DNA of 39,266 bases. Origin: an uncultured Bdellovibrionales bacterium (GTDB lineage Bacteria > Patescibacteriota > Minisyncoccia > Moranbacterales > UBA1568). The notes under the pieces were generated by a model. That model searched no databases. It was not told where the DNA came from and was given only the letters and a program-made list of their open reading frames with translations. Below are positions 14,726-25,431 of this stretch, piece by piece. The DNA lies in contig CAZCTF010000001.1 in NCBI GenBank assembly GCA_964501755.1, positions 1,314 through 40,579 of the forward strand. The letters are read 5' to 3'. Each line of letters starts with the position of its first letter. Within the stretch, counting starts at the first letter, position 1. The translations under genes were made by a program, and so were the position numbers.

Positions 14726-14806
14726 CCCCGCACCATTTTTTGCAATGACCCCTCAATGTGAAGGAGAGGATCTTGTGTAGAAAATGGTGCGGGGTCTTTT
14801 GTTTTG
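14726..14806 (+). terminator. terminator-like long hairpin after rplL
   Basis: ccccgcaccatttt (14726-14739) pairs perfectly with aaaatggtgcgggg (14781-14794), followed by tcttttgtttt. Confidence 0.6.
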
Positions 14807-14831
14807 ACAAAAAATAAGAGAGGAGTAGGAT
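14804..14831 (+). promoter_or_regulatory. candidate promoter of the antiporter gene
   Basis: TTGACA (14804-14809), 16-nt spacer, TAGGAT (14826-14831). Confidence 0.3.
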
Positions 14832-14899: not shown

Positions 14900-16990
14900 A
14901 TGTCCCTCGAAGTCGTCTTGGCGGTAGCTGTTTTAATGCTCATTTCCATTGGGACATACTTTGTCGCCGGTCGCTTGAAAGTCCCGTACACGGTGCTCCT
15001 TGTCATCGTCGGTTCTGTCCTTGTTCCGTTATCGAACTTTCCCTTCTTTCATTTCATCAAGAGTTTTCAGTTGACACCAGAGCTCCTCTTTTTCGTCTTT
15101 CTCCCAGTGCTCATCTTCGAGTCGGCCTATAACATGAACATGCGGGAGATGGCCGAGAATATCCGGTCGATCTCATGGCTTTCCGTCGTCAGCCTTATTG
15201 TTTCGGCATTTTTCGTCGCATTCGCACTTTTCTGGGGGCTCAAGCTTATTGGTTTCCCGGTACCGTTCATGGCAACGCTCATTTTTGGTGCCCTCATCTC
15301 GGCGACGGATCCAGTAGCAGTCCTCGCGCTGTTCAAGGAGTTCGGCGTACCACGCCGACTCTCGCTTATTTTCGAAGGAGAGAGTCTTTTCAATGACGGA
15401 ACCTCGCTCGCCCTTTTCTTGATCGTGCTCGAAGTGGCAATCGCTGGCTTTACTGGATTCGGCAGCATCCTCGGTGGATTGTTCATGTTTACCACGATGG
15501 TCTTGGGTGGCGTCGCTTTCGGTCTTTTCATGGGATTTATCTTTTCCAAGATCATCGGAAAAGTGAAAGACAATGAACACATCGAGATCACGCTGACGAT
15601 GCTTGTGGCACATCTCACCTTCATCCTTTCTGAACTCATCTCGCACCATCTTGTCCTCTTCGGACAGGAGATTAAGTTTTCTTCGATCATCGCGACAGTC
15701 ATGGCATCCATGGTGATCGGCAACTACGGCCGTTTCAAGATCTCGCCACGTGTCGAGGAGTATATGGAGAAGTTCTGGGGCTATTTTGCTTTCGTGGCCA
15801 ACTCGCTCGTATTCATCCTGATGGGACTCCTCTTTGCCGACCTCCCAATCCAGTTCAACCATTTCATCCTCCCGATGCTCATTACCGTCGTCGTCGTGCT
15901 CGTCGGGCGCGCCCTCTCGATCTATCCGGTTGTCGCAGCGGTCAATTGGATGAAGAAAGAAAAACCGATTCCGATGAGTTGGCAGCACCTTCTCGCGTGG
16001 GGGAGTCTGCGTGGCGCGCTCGCAGTCACGATGGTGCTCCTCATCCCGGATACGCTCACGCTCCCAGGCTGGAATTATGACTTTACCGTGAAGGAATTCA
16101 TCGCAGCGATCACAATCGGCTGTATTTATTTCACGCTCTGCATCAAAGCGACCTCGATCGGGACGATGATCAAGAAAATGAAATTGTCCGACCTGACCCC
16201 ACTCGAAACAGTAGAGTACCATGAGTGCTCTGCCTTGGTCTATCAGGAAGCGCTCGAGAAACTTGAGGACTTCCATAGCAAGGGGTATGTAAAGAATGAG
16301 ATCTTCGAGCGTTTGAAGCGCGAGTATACGGAGCGCTATGAAGAGTCAGCCGCCTCTTGCAAAGCGCTTTTTGAGGCGACGCCGGCCGATATGGGCCGTG
16401 CGCTCCAGATGTATGCACTCGGCATGGAAAAGCGTTTTCTGAAGGAACTATACGTCTATCAGGAAATATCGGAATCTGAATACAAGGAAATCCTGAATAA
16501 AATTGCTATTCAGACTAATCGTGTCGAAGAAGGGCGGGAGCAGGTGACCGGCCATGCTGAGCGGTTCCAACTCGACTGGTTCGAAACGCTCGTTATGTGG
16601 TTCCGAAAGAAGTTTTACCCAAAGACCCCGAAGCAGGAGCTTCTTGAGGAGTACCGATACTATCGGGCCCAGGAAGTAGTGCTGGCCAAGGTGCTCCGAC
16701 GCCTGAAATTAATTTCAGAGCGCTTCCCCGGGTTGTATGGAGATGATACTTCGATCCAATCGGTTATTGCCATTTATGAGGGGCTCCGGGCCGATGCCGA
16801 GCGGAAGCGTGACGGGGTAGCGGTCAAAATTGGCACCGAACTTGCTTATTTGAATGAGTCTTTCGGTCGGTATGCACTTTTCAAGACCGAGGAACGGATG
16901 CTGGACGAGCTCCTCGAGAATGCGATGCTCCCGCGCAAAGTGGCGAATATGCTCTATAATGAACTGAAAGACGAGGCCTACTCGATCTAG
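14900..16990 (+). CDS. nhaP: CPA1-family (NhaP-type) Na+(K+)/H+ antiporter with large C-terminal cytoplasmic helical domain
   Basis: Multi-TM N-terminal about 430 aa with ISATDPVAVLALFKEFGVP motif; 696 aa in total. Confidence 0.85.
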   Translation: MSLEVVLAVAVLMLISIGTYFVAGRLKVPYTVLLVIVGSVLVPLSNFPFFHFIKSFQLTPELLFFVFLPVLIFESAYNMNMREMAENIRSISWLSVVSLIVSAFFVAFALFWGLKLIGFPVPFMATLIFGALISATDPVAVLALFKEFGVPRRLSLIFEGESLFNDGTSLALFLIVLEVAIAGFTGFGSILGGLFMFTTMVLGGVAFGLFMGFIFSKIIGKVKDNEHIEITLTMLVAHLTFILSELISHHLVLFGQEIKFSSIIATVMASMVIGNYGRFKISPRVEEYMEKFWGYFAFVANSLVFILMGLLFADLPIQFNHFILPMLITVVVVLVGRALSIYPVVAAVNWMKKEKPIPMSWQHLLAWGSLRGALAVTMVLLIPDTLTLPGWNYDFTVKEFIAAITIGCIYFTLCIKATSIGTMIKKMKLSDLTPLETVEYHECSALVYQEALEKLEDFHSKGYVKNEIFERLKREYTERYEESAASCKALFEATPADMGRALQMYALGMEKRFLKELYVYQEISESEYKEILNKIAIQTNRVEEGREQVTGHAERFQLDWFETLVMWFRKKFYPKTPKQELLEEYRYYRAQEVVLAKVLRRLKLISERFPGLYGDDTSIQSVIAIYEGLRADAERKRDGVAVKIGTELAYLNESFGRYALFKTEERMLDELLENAMLPRKVANMLYNELKDEAYSI

Positions 16991-17007: not shown

Positions 17008-17640
17008 ATGGAATTCTTCGGTATCGACATGGTTCAGGCGATTAAAGCGATTGGGTATGTTGGCCTTTTTGCGATTGTCTTTGCGGAAACGGGTCTCTTT
17101 TTGGGTTTTTTCTTCCCAGGAGACAGTCTGCTCTTTGTCGCGGGTGTCTTGGCGGCCCAGGGGTTTTTCTCGCTGCCAATCCTCCTCATGGTCCTTTTTC
17201 TCGCTGCCTTTACCGGCAATATGGTTGGATACTGGTTCGGTGCCTTTGTCGGGCCCAAGATTTTTACTCGCGAAGATTCGCTCCTCTTTCGTAAGTCACA
17301 TATCCTGAAGGCACAGGCATTCTATGAGCGATACGGCGGTAAGACTATCGTCCTTGCACGGTTCGTTCCGATTGTCAGAACCTTTGCACCGATCGTTGCG
17401 GGCGTGGCTCGGATGCACTACGGCACCTTTGCCTTCTTTAACCTAATCGGCGCCTTGCTCTGGTCCGTCGGACTGACCACAGCTGCCTACTATTTAGGGA
17501 CTCTGATCGAGGATATCGACCGCTACCTCCTGCCGATTATCGTGCTCATTATCTTCTTGTCGGTTCTCCCGGGGGTATTCGAATACTGGCGTGACCGGAG
17601 AGAGGCGAAAGCCAGCGGGACTGCGATGGACAAAAGCTGA
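17008..17640 (+). CDS. dedA: DedA/VTT-domain membrane protein
   Basis: FAETGLFLGFFFPGDSLLFVAGVLA and RFVPIVRTFAPIVAG motifs. Confidence 0.85.
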   Translation: MEFFGIDMVQAIKAIGYVGLFAIVFAETGLFLGFFFPGDSLLFVAGVLAAQGFFSLPILLMVLFLAAFTGNMVGYWFGAFVGPKIFTREDSLLFRKSHILKAQAFYERYGGKTIVLARFVPIVRTFAPIVAGVARMHYGTFAFFNLIGALLWSVGLTTAAYYLGTLIEDIDRYLLPIIVLIIFLSVLPGVFEYWRDRREAKASGTAMDKS

Positions 17641-17715: not shown

Positions 17716-18252
17716 ATGTATCGCATGCTGAAGAAAATTCTGACTACGCCACTCGTTGTACGGAGCGAACGAGAAATCCGCGGAACGGAGATTGAAGCGG
17801 TGGGAATAGCGGTCAAGGAGCGAGCGAAGAAGATATTCGGCGGTTCGATTGCGATTCGCGAAGTCGCTGCGGGATCGAGTAATGCCGAAGAGCAAGAGCT
17901 CACGGCGCTCACCAATGCCTACTATGACGTCGAGCGCTTCGGCGTGCATTTCGTCGCTTCGCCGCGGCATGCGGATATGCTCTTTGTCACTGGGCCGGTC
18001 AGTCGCAACATGGCTGACGGTGTCCGTCATTCATATGAGGCGATGCCGACACCAAAATGGGTTGTCGCCGTCGGAGATGGGGCGATCGATGGGGGCATCT
18101 ATCGGGACTCATATGCTGTCTATAATCGAGTCGAGGATCTCGTCCCGGTGGATTTCAAGATCCCAGGCGATCCGCCCTCGCCCATGGCTGTTTTAAAAGC
18201 TTTACTCGAGATTCTCGATGAGATCGACAGTCGGCGTACAGATAGACCATAG
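17716..18252 (+). CDS. NuoB/HycG/HyfI/MbhJ-like small subunit, cysteine-free
   Basis: DVERFGVHFVASPRHADMLFVTGPV and PVDFKIPGDPP fold motifs; cluster-ligand positions read GSSNAEE, GDGAIDGG, PGDPP; zero Cys in 178 aa. Confidence 0.85.
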   Translation: MYRMLKKILTTPLVVRSEREIRGTEIEAVGIAVKERAKKIFGGSIAIREVAAGSSNAEEQELTALTNAYYDVERFGVHFVASPRHADMLFVTGPVSRNMADGVRHSYEAMPTPKWVVAVGDGAIDGGIYRDSYAVYNRVEDLVPVDFKIPGDPPSPMAVLKALLEILDEIDSRRTDRP

Positions 18253-18255
18253 CCT

Positions 18256-20313
18256 ATGGAATTTTTTCTTACTGAAGACGCATTGTTTGCTCTCCTCGCC
18301 TCTTTTTTTATCGGGGCGATTGCGTCGCTCCTCGCTGGAGCACGAATGAATGATGGTGGTCGGATGGCAAACAGAGTCGGCCACGGAGCGGCAGCATCCG
18401 GTTCGCTTGTTGGTCTTGCGATGTCGGCGGTAGTACTCATGAATGGTCGAGGTGTCAGTTTTCAGTTCGAGAGTGCATTCCCACTCTTTGACCTCTCGTT
18501 CCGAATCGATGGCATGGGGGCGTTTTTTCTCGGTCTCGCTTCGCTTATCGCCCTCCTTGCATCGATTTACGGCTATGGGTATCAAAAGCACTTTATTGGA
18601 AGTGGATGTCTCGGGTCATACGGTTTTTTCTATAATCTCTTCGTTGGAAGCCTACTGCTCGTTCCAGTCGCGAATCAAGCGCTTTTCTTCCTCCTCGTCT
18701 GGGAAGTGATGTCACTCGCTTCATACTTCCTTGTTGTTTTTGAACGAGAAAAACCGGAAAATGTCCGGGCGGGTTTCCTCTATTTCCTCATGACACACTT
18801 CGGGACAGCATTTATCATGCTGGCCTGTCTCCTTGCCTATCAGGCGACTGGATCGTTCTCATTTGACGCATGGCGTGAGGCGTTCGGAACACTTTCTTCG
18901 GGCACCGAACTGCTCATCCTCGGCTTTGCGCTTATCGGTTTCGCGACGAAAGCCGGTCTCATCCCGCTCCATATCTGGCTTCCAGAGGCGCACCCGGCGG
19001 CCCCATCCCATGTCTCAGCACTCATGTCTGGCATCATGGTGAAGACAGCACTCTTCATGCTTTTCCGATTCTTCTTCGACTTTTTCCAGGGTGCGCGTAT
19101 TGAGTGGGGTGTCGCGTTCCTTATCATTGGATCAGTTTCCGCAATTCTCGGTATCCTCTATGCCAATGCGGAACGCGATCTGAAGCGCCTCCTCGCGTAC
19201 AGTACCGTCGAAAACGTTGGTATTGTCACGATTGCTTTTGGTGCCGGACTGACACTCTTCGCGCTCGGTCAGGAGCGAGTCGCACTTTTCGCGCTCGCGG
19301 CTGCTCTCTACCATCTCGTGAATCATGCGATCTTCAAGTCTCTTCTCTTCTTTGGTGCTGGCGCAGTGGTCAGTGCTACGGGGACACGGAATATGGAGGC
19401 CTACGGCGGGCTCTGGCGAGTTATGCCGTATACGGCGAGCTTTTTTCTCGTGGGTTCGCTTGCGATCGCTGCGCTACCGCCCTTTAACGGATTCGTGAGC
19501 GAATGGCTAACTTTCCAAGTTCTTTTTGCCGGGGTCATTGGCGCTCCGCTTGCAGTAAAGACGGCATTTCTCTTCGCCCTCGGAGCGCTCGTTTTCACGA
19601 GTGGTCTTACGATCGCTTGTTTTGTGAAAGTATTCGGTACGGCGTTTCTCGCTCGTCCGCGCACTGCCGAGGCTCGGGCAGCACATGAAGTTTCATGGTT
19701 TCTCCTTTCCCCGATGGCACTTCTTTCGGTGATCGCTCTCGGGCTCGGACTGTTTTCGTCCCATGTGCTTGCGGCATTGACGGGAGTTGTGGCGAGCATC
19801 GGTCTTACAAATCCGACGACGCTGCGTTTCCCGTTCCTCGAAATCGTTGCCTCGCGTCATGCCTTTGCGGATGTGTTGCCGCTCGCAACGATCGTCTTAC
19901 TTCTCGTCGCTTTTCTTGCAGCTGTGTTCGTCGGTATCCGGTTGGCCACACGTGGCCGCATCGTGACGATTGCTCCGACCTGGGACTGCGGGTTTCCGCT
20001 TTCCGAACGGAGCGAGATTACAGCGACGAGCTTCTCCCGGTCGCTTGTGACGATTTTCCAGGGGGTGCTCCGCCCGACGAAACAGTCGACAGTCGAATAC
20101 CATGATGAGCGGACCCGGTACTTTGTGAAGGCGGCGAGTATTGAGACTGGTCTTCGTGACGTCTACCGCGAGCGACTGTACCGTCCTGTTGATACGGCAC
20201 TCAGCTTTCTCGCGAACCGTATCCGACTGGTCCAGACTGGGAACGTGAATATGTACATACTCTATTTCGCCGTCGCGCTCGTTGGTACACTCCTCTGGGC
20301 CGCGCGCAGTTGA
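18256..20313 (+). CDS. HyfB/HycC/NuoL-like antiporter-type membrane subunit
   Basis: LVWEVMSLASYFLV, KAGLIPLHIWLPEAHPAAPSHVSALMSG, NHAIFKSLLFFGAG, C-terminal TWDCGFP extension. Confidence 0.85.
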   Translation: MEFFLTEDALFALLASFFIGAIASLLAGARMNDGGRMANRVGHGAAASGSLVGLAMSAVVLMNGRGVSFQFESAFPLFDLSFRIDGMGAFFLGLASLIALLASIYGYGYQKHFIGSGCLGSYGFFYNLFVGSLLLVPVANQALFFLLVWEVMSLASYFLVVFEREKPENVRAGFLYFLMTHFGTAFIMLACLLAYQATGSFSFDAWREAFGTLSSGTELLILGFALIGFATKAGLIPLHIWLPEAHPAAPSHVSALMSGIMVKTALFMLFRFFFDFFQGARIEWGVAFLIIGSVSAILGILYANAERDLKRLLAYSTVENVGIVTIAFGAGLTLFALGQERVALFALAAALYHLVNHAIFKSLLFFGAGAVVSATGTRNMEAYGGLWRVMPYTASFFLVGSLAIAALPPFNGFVSEWLTFQVLFAGVIGAPLAVKTAFLFALGALVFTSGLTIACFVKVFGTAFLARPRTAEARAAHEVSWFLLSPMALLSVIALGLGLFSSHVLAALTGVVASIGLTNPTTLRFPFLEIVASRHAFADVLPLATIVLLLVAFLAAVFVGIRLATRGRIVTIAPTWDCGFPLSERSEITATSFSRSLVTIFQGVLRPTKQSTVEYHDERTRYFVKAASIETGLRDVYRERLYRPVDTALSFLANRIRLVQTGNVNMYILYFAVALVGTLLWAARS

Positions 20314-20319
20314 TCACCT

Positions 20320-21294
20320 ATGACTATGGATATTCTTTTCTTCACCCTCCAAATCATCGCCGTCCCGGTCCTTTCGCCGCTCCTCGTTGGGATTATCCGG
20401 CGCGTGAAAGCGCGTCTCCAGGGACGGGTCGGTGCGGATGTCATTCAGCCGTACCGTGATCTGCGAAAACTTTTTGCTAAGGACGAAGTCATTTCAGCTG
20501 ACGCGTCATGGATTACGCGCTTCGCTCCCTATCTCATATTTTCGATCACGCTGCTTCTCGGTGCGACCGTGCCGCTTGTCACCACAGTGGCGCCGACGAT
20601 CCCGGGCTATCCTGAACTCATGCTCACGGCGACAGGTGATTTCCTTGTGATTGTTTATCTCTTTGCTCTCATGACTTTTTTTCTCGCCCTCGCCGGCATG
20701 GATGCAGGGGGCGGCTTTGGCGGTCTCGGATCGAGTCGCGAGATGATGGTTGCAGCGCTTGCAGAAGCCGGTCTTATCTTTTCGCTTCTCCCGGCATCAT
20801 TCTTGGCGGGGACGGGTCATATCCTCGATATGGTCGTACAATTGAGCAATCTGCCGATCACCACGGCGTTCCCGCTCTTTGTCGCCTTTCTTGCGTTCGC
20901 TATTGCGCTTTTGGCTGAAAATGCCCGGTTTCCGGTGGATAATCCAGCGACACACCTCGAGCTCACTATGATCCATGAGGCGATGCTGCTCGAGTATTCG
21001 GGTAAGCGGCTGGCGCTCATGGAGTGGGCGAGCGCGAATAAACTCATGATTTTCATCGCACTCGGGGCCAACGTCTTCTTCCCGTGGGGGATCGCTTTCG
21101 AATTCTCCTCCTTTCAGACCTTACTCATCCCAGCGCTCATCTTTTCAGTCAAGGCGCTAGCGTTCCTCGTCGGTATCGCGCTCGTCGAATCGCTCATGGC
21201 AAAATTCCGTATCTTCCGTGTCCCAGATCTCCTCTTTACTTCCTTTGTCCTCGGCATGATCGCAGTGGTGCTCACGGTCTTGCTCACTGCCTAA
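20320..21294 (+). CDS. HyfC/HycD/NuoH-like membrane subunit
   Basis: GMDAGGGFGGLGSSREMMVAALAE and HEAMLLEYSGKRLAL motifs typical of HycD/NuoH. Confidence 0.85.
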   Translation: MTMDILFFTLQIIAVPVLSPLLVGIIRRVKARLQGRVGADVIQPYRDLRKLFAKDEVISADASWITRFAPYLIFSITLLLGATVPLVTTVAPTIPGYPELMLTATGDFLVIVYLFALMTFFLALAGMDAGGGFGGLGSSREMMVAALAEAGLIFSLLPASFLAGTGHILDMVVQLSNLPITTAFPLFVAFLAFAIALLAENARFPVDNPATHLELTMIHEAMLLEYSGKRLALMEWASANKLMIFIALGANVFFPWGIAFEFSSFQTLLIPALIFSVKALAFLVGIALVESLMAKFRIFRVPDLLFTSFVLGMIAVVLTVLLTA

Positions 21295-21304
21295 AGTCAT
21301 CGAT

Positions 21305-21964
21305 ATGGAATTCCAATTGCTCCAACTCGCACTCTCGCTCGATCTCGCCGCATTCGTCGCGGTCGTCCTGCTTCATTTGGTGAAGAGTACGAAATACACG
21401 ATCCGTCTGTATGCCCTTCAGTCCGCCGCAGTCGCTATAGTACTTGTGATTCTCGGCGTGACTGAGGACGAGCGGGGATTTATCGCGATCGGTGCCGTTA
21501 CTTTTGTCGCCAAGGTAATTATCGCTCCGTTCTTTTTCTCTCGGCTGGTCCAGCGGTTCGGACATCTGGTGGCGAGCACCAGCTATCTTTCGATGCCGGC
21601 GACATTGGCGGTACTGCTCGGTCTCATCATCTTTTCAGCTTCTTCGGTCTTCGATCCGCTTTGGGCCGTTGCCGCCGTCACTCCTGATGTTTTTGCCTTC
21701 AATGTAGCAATGGTATTCATCGCTCTTTTCCTGCTTATCAATCGGCAGGGTGTGCTTGCCCAGATTATCGCTGTCCTGGCGCTCGAGAATAGTATCGTGC
21801 TCTTTGCGTTATTCATCGGCGTGAAACAGACATTCGCACTCGAGATGGGAATCATGTTCGATGTCATTCTCTGGATGGTCATCGCCTATGCGTTCCTTCA
21901 GATCATCTATCGGCAATTCGGGTCGCTCGATACACGCGAGATGCGCCAATTAACCGAAGACTAA
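21305..21964 (+). CDS. HyfE-like (NuoK-related) membrane subunit
   Basis: Multi-TM protein of 219 aa in the HyfE position, with LALENSIVLFALF motif. Confidence 0.7.
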   Translation: MEFQLLQLALSLDLAAFVAVVLLHLVKSTKYTIRLYALQSAAVAIVLVILGVTEDERGFIAIGAVTFVAKVIIAPFFFSRLVQRFGHLVASTSYLSMPATLAVLLGLIIFSASSVFDPLWAVAAVTPDVFAFNVAMVFIALFLLINRQGVLAQIIAVLALENSIVLFALFIGVKQTFALEMGIMFDVILWMVIAYAFLQIIYRQFGSLDTREMRQLTED

Positions 21965-21975
21965 GGCAAACTCGT

Positions 21976-23430
21976 ATGATCCTCACCCTCGTCCTCGTTC
22001 CGCTCCTGACCGCACTGCTCGTCTTCCTCTTGCCGACCAAGAAGACGCGTTTTATGGAGGCAAGCGTGATCATCGCGGCTGGCATCGAGCTGGCGCTCGT
22101 ATTCCAAGTGATCACCACGGTAGCCCTCGAGGGCACCATCCGTGGGACTGACGCTTTCGCGCTGGATGGTCTCTCAAGTTATATTGTGCTTCTTATCACA
22201 CTGGTCGGTTTTTTCGTCTCGCTGTATTCCGTCGGTTATCTCCGGACGGAAGTAGGGAAGGGGATTATCGGTCCGCGCCGTGTTCGTCAACTTTTCATCC
22301 TCCTCGAGCTCTTCCTCTTTGCGATGTATCTCGCGGTCTCGACAGTAAATCCGATCATCACGTGGATCGCGATCGAAGCGATGACTTTGCCGACAGTCTT
22401 TCTCATCAGTTTCTACAATAAACCGACCGCGACAGAGGCGGCGTGGAAGTATCTTATCCTGAATTCGATCGGTCTCCTCATTGGCCTCCTCGGTACGCTC
22501 CTCTTTGTTGCCCTCCAAGAAGACCACTCGGGCGCCACGAACTGGATAAACCTCATCACTGCCGCCTCAACCGGTCTTATTCCGGCAGAGGTCGCCAAGA
22601 TTGCTTTTGTCCTCATCTTCATCGGCTATGGGGCCAAAGTCGGTCTCGCGCCGCTGCATGCCTGGTTACCGGACGCCCATAGCAAGGCGCCCTCGCCCAT
22701 CTCGGCATTGCTTTCGGGTGTACTTCTGAACGTCGCACTTTTTGCGGTGCTTCGCTGGAAACAGGTGACTGATCTAGCGCTTGGAAGCGATCAATTCACT
22801 GGCAGCCTACTTATTTTCTTCGGAATACTTTCTGTTTTCCTTGCCGCCTTTATCATCTTTGTTCAGAAGAACTACAAGCGCCTCCTGGCATACTCGAGTA
22901 TCGAGCATATGGGACTCATCGCGATCGGCTTCGGGCTTGGCGGCATCGGGACCATCGCTGGCCTCCTTCATATGCTCTACCACGCCCTCGCTAAATCGAT
23001 GCTCTTTCTCTTGGCGGGAAATATCTTCCTCCGCTACAACTCGACGAAGTTGAAGAATGTTAGTGGCCTCATATCGGCGTTGCCGCTCTCGGGCCCGCTC
23101 TTTTTCGCCGGTATCCTCATCCTGTCGGGTCTCCCGCCGTTCGCACTCTTTGCGACGAAGTTGCTTATCCTCTCGGCAGGCATCGTTTTTTCGCCATGGC
23201 TTGTTGGCGGACTGCTCATCGCGCTCGGCGTCATGTTCTTCGGTTTCTTCCGCTTCGTCACCAAGCTCGCCTATGGACCAGTACCGGAGGGCATCGACCG
23301 CGGCGAGGCGCATTTCCTGACACAACTCCCGGTAGCACTCCTCTTCGCGACACTCCTGGTCCTGAGCTGGTATGTGCCCGAATCGCTCAATACAGTCCTT
23401 GCATCCGTGAACGAGACTCTGTCGCACTAA
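21976..23430 (+). CDS. HyfF/NuoN/NuoM-like antiporter-type membrane subunit
   Basis: IAIEAMTLPTVFL, GAKVGLAPLHAWLPDAHSKAPSPISALLSG, YSSIEHMG, YHALAKSMLFLLAG. Confidence 0.85.
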   Translation: MILTLVLVPLLTALLVFLLPTKKTRFMEASVIIAAGIELALVFQVITTVALEGTIRGTDAFALDGLSSYIVLLITLVGFFVSLYSVGYLRTEVGKGIIGPRRVRQLFILLELFLFAMYLAVSTVNPIITWIAIEAMTLPTVFLISFYNKPTATEAAWKYLILNSIGLLIGLLGTLLFVALQEDHSGATNWINLITAASTGLIPAEVAKIAFVLIFIGYGAKVGLAPLHAWLPDAHSKAPSPISALLSGVLLNVALFAVLRWKQVTDLALGSDQFTGSLLIFFGILSVFLAAFIIFVQKNYKRLLAYSSIEHMGLIAIGFGLGGIGTIAGLLHMLYHALAKSMLFLLAGNIFLRYNSTKLKNVSGLISALPLSGPLFFAGILILSGLPPFALFATKLLILSAGIVFSPWLVGGLLIALGVMFFGFFRFVTKLAYGPVPEGIDRGEAHFLTQLPVALLFATLLVLSWYVPESLNTVLASVNETLSH

Positions 23431-23441
23431 AAACCTCTCCT

Positions 23442-25028
23442 ATGATCGATCCTACTCATTTACTCCAGCGTTTCGGACTTAACGGCCTCGTACCAGTGTC
23501 GGAGGGCAGCCGTGTTCTTTTCGAGGTGAAAGCGACCGATCTGTCGCGTGTCATAATGACGTTGAAAAAGACTCACACACTCCCGCTGAAGACGATGGCG
23601 GCAAGCGATGAGCGCGCAGTCGGCCGGGGTTTTCGCATTTACTACGTCTTCGGTATTCCGAAGGAGAATGTGTTCTTGATCCCGTTCCTCTCAGTGAGTC
23701 CGGAGAATCCTTCCTTCCCGTCAATGACACCGGAAGATCAGGAATTTGCCATGTATGAGCGCGAGATACTGACGTTCTTCGGCCTTATGCCGGTCGGCCA
23801 CCCAGCGCCAGAGCGGATCACACTCCATGCTGAAAATTTTCCTAAGGATATCTATCCGCTCCGGAAAGAGTTCAAATGGAATACGGCAATTACTGAACCA
23901 AAGGAAAAGGAATGGGCAACTTTCAAAAAATACGAAGGACAGGGTGTCTATGAGATCCCAGTCGGTCCGGTCCATGCCGGCATTATCGAACCGGGACATT
24001 TCCGTTTCAGTGTTCTCGGTGAAGAGATTCTTCGCTTGGAACCGCGGCTCGGTTATGTCCACAAGGGGACGGAGAAACTTTTTGAGATGCTCGAATCAAA
24101 CCGGCAGGTGATCCTGGCCGAACGTATTTCGGGTGATAGCTCATTCCATCACGCGCTCGCCTACTGCCAGGCGATCGAATCGCTTGCAGGGGCTGAAGTG
24201 CCAAAACGAGCAACATATCTCCGGATGATCATGGCTGAACTGGAACGGCTCGCCAATCACTACAATGATCTCGCGTTTATCATGCTGGACACGGGGCTTT
24301 CCTTTGGCGGCAGTCAGGGGACGCGACTCCGTGAGCGGGTCATGCAGTGGAATGAGTGTCTTACTGGTCACCGATTCTTGCGCGGCATGCTGACACCGGG
24401 CGGCCTTTTAAAAGACATTCCGAACCATGAGTTGAATGCGCTCAAACTTGATCTCGTTGATCTCGAGAATGATTTTCTCGAAGTGATAGATGCGGTCTCG
24501 GAGAGTCTCTCGCTCCTCAATCGGCTCCAGAATACAGGGCGTTTGGAGTGGACAATCGGGGAGGATCATGGCATCGTCGGGATCGGCGCTCGAGCGATTG
24601 GTATCGAACGTGATGCGCGCGCGGATTTTCCGTATGCTGCCTATGACATGGTTCATTTCTCGGTTCCGACAGAGGATGGCGGCGATGTCTATGCCCGGTA
24701 CAGGGTCCGCGAACGCGAAGTCCATCAGTCATTCAAGATCCTCCATCAGTCGATCAATCACATCGTCTCTCTTTCTGGTCCAATCACTCTCCCGCTCGGC
24801 AATCTTGCGCCGAATGCGCACGCGGTCGGCATCGTCGAGGGCTGGCGAGGCGATATCGTCTATTTCGTTTTGACTGATGCGATGGGCGCAATCACTCGTG
24901 TCAAAGTTCGTGATCCATCGTTCCTGAATTGGCAGGTTTTTCCGTATCTTGTGACGAACGACATGGTTCCAGACTTCCCGCTCATCAACAAAAGCCTCAA
25001 TCTTTCCTATTCAGGGAATGATCTCTAG
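23442..25028 (+). CDS. fused NuoC-NuoD / HyfG / HycE-like large subunit lacking NiFe ligands
   Basis: ATG 23442 lies 11 nt after the preceding stop; GPVHAGIIEPGHFRF, RLGYVHKGTEK; the L1 motif reads ERISGDSSFHH and the C-terminus reads SLNLSYSGNDL. Confidence 0.85.
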   Translation: MIDPTHLLQRFGLNGLVPVSEGSRVLFEVKATDLSRVIMTLKKTHTLPLKTMAASDERAVGRGFRIYYVFGIPKENVFLIPFLSVSPENPSFPSMTPEDQEFAMYEREILTFFGLMPVGHPAPERITLHAENFPKDIYPLRKEFKWNTAITEPKEKEWATFKKYEGQGVYEIPVGPVHAGIIEPGHFRFSVLGEEILRLEPRLGYVHKGTEKLFEMLESNRQVILAERISGDSSFHHALAYCQAIESLAGAEVPKRATYLRMIMAELERLANHYNDLAFIMLDTGLSFGGSQGTRLRERVMQWNECLTGHRFLRGMLTPGGLLKDIPNHELNALKLDLVDLENDFLEVIDAVSESLSLLNRLQNTGRLEWTIGEDHGIVGIGARAIGIERDARADFPYAAYDMVHFSVPTEDGGDVYARYRVREREVHQSFKILHQSINHIVSLSGPITLPLGNLAPNAHAVGIVEGWRGDIVYFVLTDAMGAITRVKVRDPSFLNWQVFPYLVTNDMVPDFPLINKSLNLSYSGNDL

Positions 25029-25127: not shown

Positions 25128-25370
25128 ATGGCTTTTTCTCAATTGCCGGAGATCGCTTCCAACTTGACTCAAGAGTCACTGGACGAACAGCCCGAGTCGT
25201 CCGTTCCGTCTGCGGGCTCTGACTTCGATCCTTGGGGGCTCTCGGCCCATTTTTCAAGTGCGAGCATCTTCCCTCCCTGGGAAAAGACGGAAGGCCTACT
25301 CCGTTATTGGATGCTGCTCTGGCAGGATCAGTGGGAGCGGCAACTCCGACTCTTTGGAGTTCTACGCTAG
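25128..25370 (+). CDS. small hypothetical protein (80 aa; acidic N-terminal half, Trp-rich C-terminal half)
   Basis: Strong SD AAAGGAGGG 7 nt before the ATG; own terminator at 25397-25431. Confidence 0.55.
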   Translation: MAFSQLPEIASNLTQESLDEQPESSVPSAGSDFDPWGLSAHFSSASIFPPWEKTEGLLRYWMLLWQDQWERQLRLFGVLR

Positions 25371-25396: not shown

Positions 25397-25431
25397 CAGC
25401 ACCAGTCGAAACGATTGGTGCTGAGTTTTTT
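25397..25431 (+). terminator. Rho-independent terminator
   Basis: CAGCACCA-gtcgaaacgat-TGGTGCTG followed by AGTTTTTT. Confidence 0.65.

Follow-up and report, generated by a model that had tools for sequence, protein, structure and literature searches.

The first gene of a six-gene operon, in a 39,266-nucleotide stretch of DNA (the window) from a Moranbacteria-like CPR/Patescibacteria organism, encodes a functional protein of the NuoB/HycG fold that cannot bind the proximal, or N2-type, [4Fe-4S] cluster because its four ligand positions are S55, E58, G122, and D152. The six-subunit complex is an energy-converting hydrogenase-related (Ehr) complex, and since it has neither [NiFe] cysteines, quinone ligands, a NuoI/HycF subunit, nor small-subunit ligands, it is without a site for any classical redox cofactor. 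That the CPR Ehr clade is missing the [NiFe] ligands is already known; here the [4Fe-4S] ligands are also gone and the whole complex is cofactor-free. The loss is not peculiar to one gene, being clade-wide and recurrent in other Ehr lineages.

The small subunit and its former cluster site

The sequence-only reading described a cysteine-free product of 178 residues, which translation of the gene (Table 1) bears out. The three segments said to replace the ligand motifs, AAGSSNAEEQE (residues 51-61), VGDGAIDGG (119-127), and IPGDPP (149-154), are all located in the translation, as are the fold motifs DVERFG, SPRHADMLFVTGPV, and PVDFKIPG that were called well conserved. The protein scores 83.1 bits with Pfam Oxidored_q6 (PF01058; cut-off 27) and 123.9 bits with PRK06411, the NuoB subfamily of NCBIfam (cut-off 116). 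In a phmmer alignment with MbhJ (6cfw_J, E 1.3e-24), the four cluster cysteines of MbhJ align with S55, E58, G122, and D152, and the numbering is collinear with Cys55/Cys58/.../Cys152 of HyqI (PMC3357923). The corresponding codons are AGT, GAA, GGG, and GAT, most of which are more than one substitution from TGY. Cysteine makes up 0.52% of residues in the long ORFs of the window, and at this frequency the chance of finding none in 178 residues is P ~0.40. The absence of cysteine by itself is therefore statistically unremarkable; what is significant is that other residues have taken over all four ligand positions.

Table 1. Features of the operon and its surroundings (positions in the window)
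Feature	Position	Strand	Description	Basis
Best promoter-like site upstream of the CPA1-DedA-Ehr genes	14804-14831	+	10/12	Consensus match only
CPA1-type Na+/H+ exchanger	14900-16990	+	696 aa; directly upstream, same strand	
DedA/VTT-family membrane protein	17008-17640	+	210 aa; between CPA1 exchanger and small subunit	
Cluster-less NuoB/HycG-like small subunit	17716-18252	+	178 aa, 0 Cys	Pfam/NCBIfam, MbhJ alignment, AlphaFold2/Foldseek, dN/dS
Former ligand codon S55	17878-17880	+		Alignment to MbhJ
Former ligand codon E58	17887-17889	+		Alignment to MbhJ
Former ligand codon G122	18079-18081	+		Alignment to MbhJ
Former ligand codon D152	18169-18171	+		Alignment to MbhJ
HyfB/HycC/NuoL-like antiporter-type membrane subunit	18256-20313	+	685 aa	Pfam PF00361
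HyfC/HycD/NuoH-like membrane subunit	20320-21294	+	324 aa, 0 Cys	Pfam PF00146
HyfE-like membrane subunit	21305-21964	+	219 aa, 0 Cys; C-terminal half NuoK-like	
HyfF/NuoM-N-like antiporter-type subunit	21976-23430	+	484 aa, 0 Cys	
Fused NuoC-NuoD (HycE/HyfG-like) large subunit	23442-25028	+	528 aa, 2 Cys	
Large-subunit [NiFe] motif 1	24123-24152	+	RISGDSSFHH	
Large-subunit [NiFe] motif 2	24999-25025	+	NLSYSGNDL	
Strongest terminator-like hairpin 3' of the large subunit	25397-25423	+	12-bp stem and T run	Consensus match only

Selection, conservation, and fold

Against three syntenic orthologous contigs, the dN/dS of the small subunit is 0.03-0.05, a value like that of ribosomal protein L10; the other five subunits, L10, and SMC range from 0.02 to 0.05 on the same contigs. 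Purifying selection on all six operon genes is as strong as on housekeeping genes, which answers the question of a functional or a decaying gene in favor of the former. The sequence-only reading also proposed that related genomes be checked for shared substitutions, and the same residues are found at the ligand positions across 120 database homologues (63-100% identity): E58 and D152 in all 120, G122 in 119, and S55 in 113. Entropy is lowest in the segments that once surrounded the cluster (residues 46-76, 116-130, and 144-156; 0.19-0.30 bits), while the termini reach 1.5-2.0 bits. An AlphaFold2 model (pLDDT 78, pTM 0.72) matched only NuoB/PSST/MbhJ/HycG chains in Foldseek, with probability 1.00 and TM up to 0.78-0.82 (0.78 for MbhJ, 6cfw_J); residues 53-69 have pLDDT <50 and give no usable geometry for the substituted site. 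The low dN/dS, the predicted NuoB/PSST/MbhJ fold, and residues fixed in the clade down to 63% identity uphold the view that selection acts on the fold and that the cluster site has given way to other residues.

A decaying pseudogene, or a cysteine-free sequence produced by an assembly or sequencing artefact, has next to no probability. Nothing favors it except the missing cofactor ligands themselves, and the dN/dS argues against it, as does a reading frame that is intact and collinear with its homologues. The same protein, letter for letter, occurs on four contigs, the substitutions are common to 120 homologues from independent samples, and most ligand codons need multiple nucleotide changes from TGY; sequencing and assembly error are thus ruled out.

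Membrane subunits and the large subunit

The small subunit is followed by HyfB-like, HyfC/NuoH-like, HyfE-like, and HyfF-like subunits and a fused NuoC-NuoD large subunit. The number of cysteines in gene order is 0, 4, 0, 0, 0, and 2, so that the complex has six scattered cysteines in total. The HyfB-like subunit matches NCBIfam hydrogenase 4 subunit B at 622 bits and, by alignment to HycC (7z0s_C) and MbhH together with family conservation, keeps Glu150 in TM5, Lys232 in TM7, Lys263 in TM8, His353/His357/Lys361 in TM11, and Glu416 in TM12. The HyfC/NuoH-like subunit aligns with HycD (7z0s_D, E 1.1e-41) and has the conserved NuoH-type TM5-6 loop AENARFPVDNPATHLELTMIHEAMLLEYSG. The HyfE-like subunit matches PRK11492 of NCBIfam (hydrogenase 4 membrane subunit, 9.4e-15) and, weakly, Pfam Oxidored_q2. 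In the HyfF-like subunit the TM5 Glu, TM7 Lys, TM11 His/His/Lys, and TM12 Lys are kept, and the TM8 Lys is replaced by Asn252 throughout the family. Cluster-less operons and those whose small subunit has four cysteines show the same degree of conservation in the antiporter-like Lys, Glu, and His residues and in the NuoH loop.

The start of the large subunit is backed by a 528-residue gene call on the orthologous contigs, and its best PDB sequence match is HycE (3e-68). Alignment to HycE places RISGDSSFHH opposite RVCGICGFAH and NLSYSGND opposite DPCYSCTD; all four [NiFe] cysteines are lost, and the CxxC motifs are also missing in all 79 nearest genomic relatives, Hyq-type operons among them. 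Tyr87 and His38 of Thermus thermophilus Nqo4, the quinone ligands of complex I, align with Gly and Ile, respectively. The hydrogenase-type motif EPGHFR is present, as are Ser, Asp, and His residues at the old [NiFe] site that are conserved in the whole family. Only six columns are specific to either the cluster-less or the four-cysteine large subunits, including a lost cysteine at position 515, and a search of the large subunit for basic residues able to pair with E58 or D152 returned none.

A separate Fe-S subunit was sought and rejected. No ORF with CxxCxxCxxxC, as in the ferredoxin-type 2x[4Fe-4S] subunit NuoI/HycF (HyfH/EchF/MbhN), occurs in the 39-kb window, nor in 24 of the 25 other cluster-less loci; the remaining one (L014) has two, both outside the six-gene operon. 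Among 80 related loci, only two with four-cysteine small subunits (L048 and L049) have such an ORF within the operon. Genes for formate dehydrogenase (FDH), NuoEFG, ferredoxin, the Hyp maturation proteins, and the hydrogenase endopeptidase were not seen among the larger ORFs of the window that were scanned, and Pfam and NCBIfam identified no MrpE/F/G among the six operon genes.

Ehr identity and repeated loss of the cluster

The large subunit resembles that of group 4 hydrogenases without the cysteines that bind [NiFe], and its gene is clustered with those of small, NuoH-like, and antiporter-like membrane subunits, which are the features of Ehr. Ehr was reportedly named in Geobacter sulfurreducens (EhrA-D, EhrL, EhrS), and Marreiros et al. 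are said to have surveyed it in 2013. CPR sequences form a monophyletic clade within an Ehr subclade (Jaffe et al. 2020, PMC7304191), their large subunits are without the metal-binding cysteines, and no function has been assigned to Ehr (PMC7304191, PMC10284858, PMC10432482). No earlier mention of an Ehr losing its last Fe-S cluster was found in a literature search of incomplete coverage, so a prior report is possible.

Most related Ehr/Hyq small subunits retain four cysteines. In neighbor-joining trees of the small subunit, built without named EhrL/EhrS sequences, the cluster-less sequences form three clades with 100/100 bootstrap each that are jointly monophyletic in 0/100, so Ehr has been able to do without the cluster more than once. 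The residues at the ligand positions vary between clades (SEGD, TCDD, TEGD, and D[TPA]DN). A cluster-less homologue is present in the cultured Methanosarcina sp. Mfa9 (complete genome NZ_CP195119.1, locus L031); the neighbors of that locus were uninformative as to functional context.

Genomic neighborhood

The CPA1 exchanger is possibly co-transcribed with the Ehr genes. The CPA1-DedA-Ehr synteny persists on orthologous contigs to ~55% CPA1 identity and is confined to the SEGD (Moranbacteria-like) clade. When the flanking ORFs of 26 cluster-less loci were clustered all against all, no recurrent partner appeared beyond the six-gene core. An 80-residue ORF at 25128-25370 has a good Shine-Dalgarno sequence, but was rejected as an extra subunit because it has no homology to the ORF in the same place on orthologous contigs.

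Possible functions

With no site for a classical redox cofactor, the complex has probably ceased to transfer electrons. The reading preferred here, which we consider to have about an even chance of being correct, is a functional cluster-less Ehr that most likely acts as an Mrp-like cation/proton translocator. Such a complex would carry out secondary cation/proton translocation that keeps pH, Na+, or membrane potential in balance in a host without a respiratory chain, and the peripheral small and large subunits would be kept as a cytoplasmic cap over the NuoH-type channel. The invariant S54-S55-N56, E58, E59, E61, D121, and D152 would occupy the pocket that once held the cluster and could, as a titratable or cation-binding element, gate or couple the entry of ions to the membrane arm. 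The CPA1 exchanger and DedA protein upstream on the same strand fit a role in ion homeostasis; however, they accompany one clade only, and no neighbor is common to all cluster-less loci, which weakens the argument from context. A pure antiporter has no obvious need for an intact peripheral module with strongly conserved former active-site regions, and the different ligand-position residues of the clades speak against a single, exactly defined site for a metal or ion that all would share. A more specific version, in which coupling of the complex I type proceeds without redox chemistry, is doubtful. In it the acidic and polar residues at the N2 site, at the NuoB/NuoD/NuoH junction, would serve as a protonatable or cation-binding switch that actuates or gates the E-channel and the antiporter-like subunits, and this state would have originated separately in CPR, in Methanosarcina/Methanomicrobiales/Dehalococcoidales, and in a third lineage.

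It is improbable that the complex has remained a redox enzyme, with a cofactor held by other means (a metal bound by Asp, Glu, Ser, or His, or a flavin) or with electrons delivered by an unlinked docking partner. Both the former ligand positions and the residues around them are invariant, with many carboxylates (E58, E59, E61, D121, and D152), and the large subunit retains EPGHFR and the family-wide Ser/Asp/His, but without an N2-equivalent cluster or a NuoI-like subunit electrons have no route between the surface and the buried site. No candidate redox partner is present in the window or recurs beside cluster-less operons, the cluster-less clades carry different residues at the ligand positions, and CPR bacteria are, to our knowledge, generally described as being without respiratory chains and quinones. 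Unconventional chemistry in the family has some plausibility, since the Hyq "endo-hydrogenase" of Azorhizobium, the nearest relative studied by experiment, is reported to support, and to be needed for, hydrogenase activity despite its missing [NiFe] cysteines (PMC3357923); partnerships of FDH with Ehr have also been proposed in other phyla (PMC6349859).

The peripheral module may instead perform non-redox catalysis or substrate binding coupled to ion flow in the membrane arm, an idea of similarly low probability that draws purely on analogy with vectorial CO2 hydration by cyanobacterial NDH-1 Cup and DabAB. Conservation is strong both in the former active-site regions and in the NuoH coupling loop, and a coupling machine without redox input requires some other driving or driven reaction; however, no catalytic domain or metal-binding motif was recognized, and the operon has no carbonic-anhydrase-like or other enzyme gene. 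It is equally unlikely that the small subunit is a structural or assembly remnant, in which an ancestral structural cluster was exchanged for side-chain packing and the complex functions as do four-cysteine Ehr, the cluster having no bearing on that function. Apart from the ligands, cluster-less and four-cysteine operons have few systematic differences, repeated independent loss suggests a dispensable cluster, and most four-cysteine Ehr/Hyq operons are also without a NuoI-like subunit, leaving a single cluster with no obvious electron input. This explanation overlaps with ion translocation and names no function, however, and passive packing would not readily explain how extremely conserved the replaced loop is.

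Significance

Complex I, membrane-bound hydrogenases, MBS, and Fpo have a common module of NuoB, NuoD, NuoH, and antiporter-like subunits. In every characterized member known to us, the cluster adjacent to the active site supplies the charge that drives ion pumping. A strongly conserved member without the cluster, [NiFe], quinone ligands, or a ferredoxin subunit suggests that the architecture can be kept for a role other than electron transfer. It also constrains the function of the widespread Ehr, present in CPR, Nitrospira, ammonia-oxidizing archaea, Geobacter, rhizobia, and methanogens, and offers a simplified natural system for communication between the peripheral module and the membrane arm. 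For CPR biology it would be a rare candidate for membrane energization or ion homeostasis without respiratory chains, and the version in Methanosarcina sp. Mfa9 makes the question approachable by experiment. If a redox-free switch exists, the Ehr family would consist of ion-handling devices rather than oxidoreductases, and would include a natural "charge without electrons" variant of the complex I mechanism.

Comparison with known systems

Mrp antiporters are redox-independent and have NuoL/M/N-like and NuoK-like subunits, and the HyfB-like subunit matches MrpA (7qru_A) at 9e-40. Mrp has MrpB/E/F/G, however, and no homologues of NuoH, NuoB, or NuoC-D, so the analogy is functional only and the complex is not assigned to Mrp. 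The fold and flanking motifs of the small subunit are common to MbhJ of the Pyrococcus furiosus MBH (6CFW) and to NuoB/Nqo6/PSST of complex I (N2), but every solved homologue holds a [4Fe-4S] cluster by the four cysteines that are missing here. Complex I requires the nuoA-N set, whereas the operon has six Hyf-type genes and no NuoE/F/G/I was seen among the window ORFs that were scanned.

The subunit types resemble HyfB/C/E/F/G of hydrogenase 4, and Escherichia coli FHL (Hyc, 7Z0S) gives the best PDB matches (HycE 3e-68, HycD 1e-41, HycC 4e-65). The [NiFe] site, the HycG [4Fe-4S] cluster, the ferredoxin subunits HycF and HycB, and the formate dehydrogenase of FHL are all missing here. Group 4 [NiFe]-hydrogenases have L1 RxCGxCxxxH and L2 DPCxxCxxH/R, while the corresponding sequences here are RISGDSSFHH and NLSYSGNDL.

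Hyq from Azorhizobium caulinodans and other rhizobia (hyqBCEFGI; PMC2650096, PMC3357923) has the same six subunit types. Its large subunit shares the motifs R-x-S-G-D-S/T... and NKSxNxSYSGxDL, and its small subunit is collinear with, and ~50% identical to, the one described here; however, HyqI retains Cys55, Cys58, a third cysteine (printed as Cys112), and Cys152, where S55, E58, G122, and D152 are found here. The small subunit is last in the hyq order and first in this operon, and Hyq large subunits have extra C-terminal cysteines that are absent here. Ehr is alike in gene content and lineage, with a large subunit without [NiFe] CxxC, small, NuoH-, HyfE-, and antiporter-like subunits, and an origin in CPR. 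In the literature examined, Ehr is defined by the missing [NiFe] ligands only and continues to be treated as a complex that transfers electrons; in this operon the small-subunit [4Fe-4S] ligands are gone too, and no cofactor site is left.

The small subunit and its ligand positions

The sequence-only reading had described a NuoB/HycG-like small subunit without a single cysteine, and translation of the gene bears this out; the motifs it quoted are all present, AAGSSNAEEQE at residues 51-61, VGDGAIDGG at 119-127, and IPGDPP at 149-154. Its membership of the NuoB/HycG family is clear: the protein scores 83.1 bits against Pfam PF01058 (Oxidored_q6; cut-off 27), and its score against the NCBIfam NuoB subfamily is 123.9 bits (cut-off 116). 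In a phmmer alignment with MbhJ, a subunit of the Pyrococcus membrane-bound hydrogenase (6cfw_J, E 1.3e-24), the counterparts of the [4Fe-4S] ligands are S55, E58, G122, and D152, in agreement with the proposed replacement by Ser, Glu, Gly, and Asp; the third position is G122, not D121. The numbering is collinear with Cys55/Cys58/.../Cys152 of rhizobial HyqI (PMC3357923). The four residues opposite the ligands are encoded by AGT, GAA, GGG, and GAT, and most of these codons differ from TGY by more than one substitution. The bare lack of cysteine is not remarkable in this genome; usage in the window is very low (34/6531 long-ORF residues, 0.52%), and at that frequency 178 residues would include none with P ~0.40. 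It is the replacement of all four ligand positions that matters. Cysteine-free proteins are common in the window, including the DedA protein and three other subunits (Table).

The identical protein is found on four contigs, and the same substitutions occur throughout the best 120 database homologues (63-100% identity): E58 and D152 in all 120, G122 in 119, and S55 in 113, with Asn in the remaining seven. Ten of the 120 have a few cysteines, elsewhere in the protein or within mis-called N-termini. Within the protein, conservation is highest in the three former cluster-binding segments (entropy 0.22, 0.30, and 0.19 bits; termini 1.47 and 2.03 bits). Nei-Gojobori dN/dS, calculated by comparison with L081-L083, three contigs of other samples that share the synteny, is 0.03-0.05 for the small subunit, 0.02-0.05 for the remaining five subunits, 0.02-0.05 for ribosomal protein L10, and ~0.03 for SMC. 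An AlphaFold2 model built on 36 homologues (pLDDT 78, pTM 0.72) matches only NuoB/PSST/MbhJ/HycG chains in the PDB (TM up to 0.78-0.82); only the former Cys1/Cys2 loop, residues 53-69, is predicted poorly. Shared substitutions, dN/dS comparable with that of L10 and SMC, and a retained predicted fold together exclude both pseudogenization and assembly error. The earlier proposal of a selected fold with a replaced cluster site thus stands: the small subunit is cluster-free, functional, and strongly constrained.

The operon and its surroundings

Features of the operon region, with cysteines per protein
Feature	Position	Strand	Cys	Remarks
CPA1 Na+/H+ exchanger	14900-16990	+		directly upstream of operon, with DedA-family gene
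DedA-family gene			0	
NuoB/HycG-like small subunit	17716-18252	+	0	178 aa
HyfB/NuoL-like subunit	18256-20313	+	4	
HyfC/HycD/NuoH-like subunit	20320-21294	+	0	
HyfE-like subunit	21305-21964	+	0	
HyfF-like subunit	21976-23430	+	0	
Asn252 of HyfF-like subunit	22729-22731			TM8 Lys position
Fused NuoC-NuoD (HycE/HyfG-like) large subunit	23442-25028	+	2	528 aa
Ile515 of large subunit	24984-24986			
Residue 521 of large subunit	25002-25004			
80-aa ORF	25128-25370			
Terminator-like hairpin	25397-25423			strongest

The small-subunit gene opens a tight run of six genes on the same strand; the few cysteines that their products contain are all scattered. The mechanical large-subunit ORF begins at 23196, overlapping the HyfF-like 3' end by 235 nt; the true start is almost certainly the ATG at 23442, which gives the length called on L081 and L082. 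A 403-kb Moranbacteria MAG contig is syntenic, with 78-86% amino-acid identity over the operon genes compared, and the nearest relatives carry annotations of Candidatus Moranbacteria/Moraniibacteriota or Patescibacteria.

The large subunit, aligned with HycE (7z0s_E, E 3e-68), has RISGDSSFHH in place of RVCGICGFAH and NLSYSGND in place of DPCYSCTD, so that all four [NiFe] cysteines are gone. Tyr87 and His38 of T. thermophilus Nqo4, both quinone-ligating, align with Gly and Ile. No ORF in the entire 39-kb window has a ferredoxin-type CxxCxxCxxxC motif, and no formate dehydrogenase, NuoEFG, hyp, or ferredoxin genes were found among the larger window ORFs scanned; the remainder of the window consists of housekeeping and unrelated genes.

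Pump residues were assigned by alignment to HycC, MbhH, NdhF, and HycD. The HyfB-like subunit has Glu150 (TM5), Lys232 (TM7), Lys263 (TM8), His353/His357/Lys361 (TM11), and Glu416 (TM12); the HyfF-like subunit has the TM5 Glu, TM7 Lys, TM11 His/His/Lys, and TM12 Lys; and the NuoH-like subunit has the SRE...AE motif and the TM5-6 loop AENARFPVDNPATHLELTMIHEAMLLEYSG. These canonical residues are equally conserved in relatives whose small subunits lack the four ligand cysteines (cluster-less) and in those that keep them (four-Cys). [quoted passage not shown]

The CPA1, DedA-family, and small-subunit genes share a strand and are separated by 17 and 75 bp; the best promoter-like site precedes CPA1, and the hairpin follows the large-subunit gene. 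The linkage of CPA1 and DedA to the operon is retained to ~55% CPA1 identity, within the clade sharing the S55/E58/G122/D152 (SEGD) pattern only. In model bacteria, tolerance of alkaline conditions and Na+ has been linked to DedA proteins and to Mrp or CPA antiporters. The CPA1 C-terminus extends ~270 residues past the Pfam exchanger domain (residues 13-425), with no domain match. A strong Shine-Dalgarno sequence (GAAAGGAGGG) accompanies the 80-aa ORF before the hairpin; this ORF has no homology to the 85-aa ORF at the same place in L081 and L082 and so probably does not encode a conserved subunit.

Apparent repeated loss within the Ehr family

Scanning a single genome for each GTDB species yielded 80 loci. 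CxxC motifs are absent in all 79 recoverable large subunits, which share R-[IV]-S-G-D... and NKSxNxSYSGxDL; such large subunits define the Ehr complexes, rhizobial Hyq clusters included. All HyqI orthologues retain the four cysteines (Sprecher et al. 2012, PMC3357923), as do ~55 small subunits of the 80 loci, including those of Bradyrhizobium, Mesorhizobium, Rhodopseudomonas, and Methylobacter. The cluster-less small subunits form three groups: a CPR/Patescibacteria clade with the SEGD pattern and a T-C-D-D sister group keeping one cysteine; a TEG[D/E] group; and a D-[T/P/A]-D-N group from Methanosarcina, Methanomicrobiales, Dehalococcoidales, and Moduliflexus. When representatives clustered at 50% identity were searched, 94 of the best 150 matches retained the four cysteines, and in ~25 clusters the ligand positions are occupied by polar or acidic residues. 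Gene order differs too: operons of the CPR and TEG groups begin with the small-subunit gene, and those of the Hyq and Methanosarcina types end with it.

Neighbor-joining of four concatenated subunits (1866 columns, 36 taxa) supported each cluster-less clade in 100/100 bootstrap replicates. In none of the 100 replicates did all cluster-less taxa form one clade, nor did CPR and the Methanosarcina type; CPR and TEG did so in 9/100. This distance-based tree therefore suggests that the cluster was lost independently at least twice, and likely three times.

Comparison of large subunits from cluster-less and four-Cys groups gave only six group-specific columns, none with a new basic residue to pair with E58 or D152. 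At the position of Ile515, 90% of four-Cys-partnered large subunits have a cysteine that is lost in all cluster-less groups. Rhizobial large subunits have a second cysteine (NKSFNCSYSG, window residue 521), also absent in all cluster-less groups; both may bear on the reported hydrogenase activity of Hyq.

In the sister CPR clade (L006-L014; Magasanikbacteria, Levybacteria, Kaiserbacteria), only Cys2 is kept (GSTNACEQEL), pointing to a loss in steps or to a thiol that has acquired another role. Cluster-less Ehr is also found in a cultured methanogen with a complete genome, Methanosarcina sp. Mfa9 (L031; NZ_CP195119.1, 1971972-1992391), where the ligand positions are D, T, D, and N and the gene order is hyq-like, and at locus L025. 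CPR-type operons with the same order and 57-70% identity occur on contigs labelled Bdellovibrionales, Syntrophus aciditrophicus, and Thermoleophilia (L002-L004, L011, L014), likely through mis-binning or mislabelling, otherwise horizontal transfer; L002 and L003 also have the CPA1-DedA linkage. On the Moranbacteria MAG contig CAVZUR010000004.1 (L001, 10565-12611), the match to the HyfB-like gene is split into four parts, suggesting frameshifts from assembly errors or real disruption.

Function and comparison with known systems

Lacking [NiFe] cysteines, quinone ligands, [4Fe-4S] ligands, and any ferredoxin motif, the complex as encoded has no site for a classical redox cofactor, and its ion-translocation apparatus is intact. 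We infer that it does not transfer electrons. Ehr complexes are of unknown function, yet have been framed as electron-transfer systems (PMC6349859, PMC10432482, PMC10284858). A redox complex using a non-cysteine cofactor or an unlinked redox partner is unlikely.

The complex most likely works, by analogy, in secondary, Mrp-like cation/proton translocation that would keep pH, Na+, or membrane potential in balance. In this view, the peripheral module would remain as a cytoplasmic cap over the NuoH-type channel, with invariant polar and acidic residues filling the old cluster pocket, possibly as a titratable or cation-binding gate. The upstream CPA1 and DedA-family genes lend circumstantial support to ion homeostasis, but their linkage is limited to one clade, and the ligand-position residues vary among cluster-less clades. 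Mrp, unlike this complex, has no NuoH, NuoB, or NuoD homologues, and the conserved peripheral module is not obviously needed by a plain antiporter. That module could instead carry out a non-redox reaction coupled to ions, which is improbable; equally improbable is a small subunit that is purely a structural remnant, against which the strong conservation of the replaced loop argues.

The complex belongs to the known, enigmatic Ehr group. The accessible literature, of which coverage was incomplete so that prior notice is possible, makes no mention of the Ehr small subunit's cluster; nor were the total absence of cofactor sites (the N2-equivalent cluster included), the fixation of this state under strong purifying selection, or its apparently repeated origin found there. 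The CPR clade is already known at the large-subunit level, its Ehr large subunits without metal-binding cysteines being monophyletic and described as 'likely cannot interact with H2' (Jaffe et al. 2020, PMC7304191). A cofactor-free complex speaks against an oxidoreductase role for at least part of the Ehr family. Methanosarcina is a tractable system in which to test the cluster-less form.
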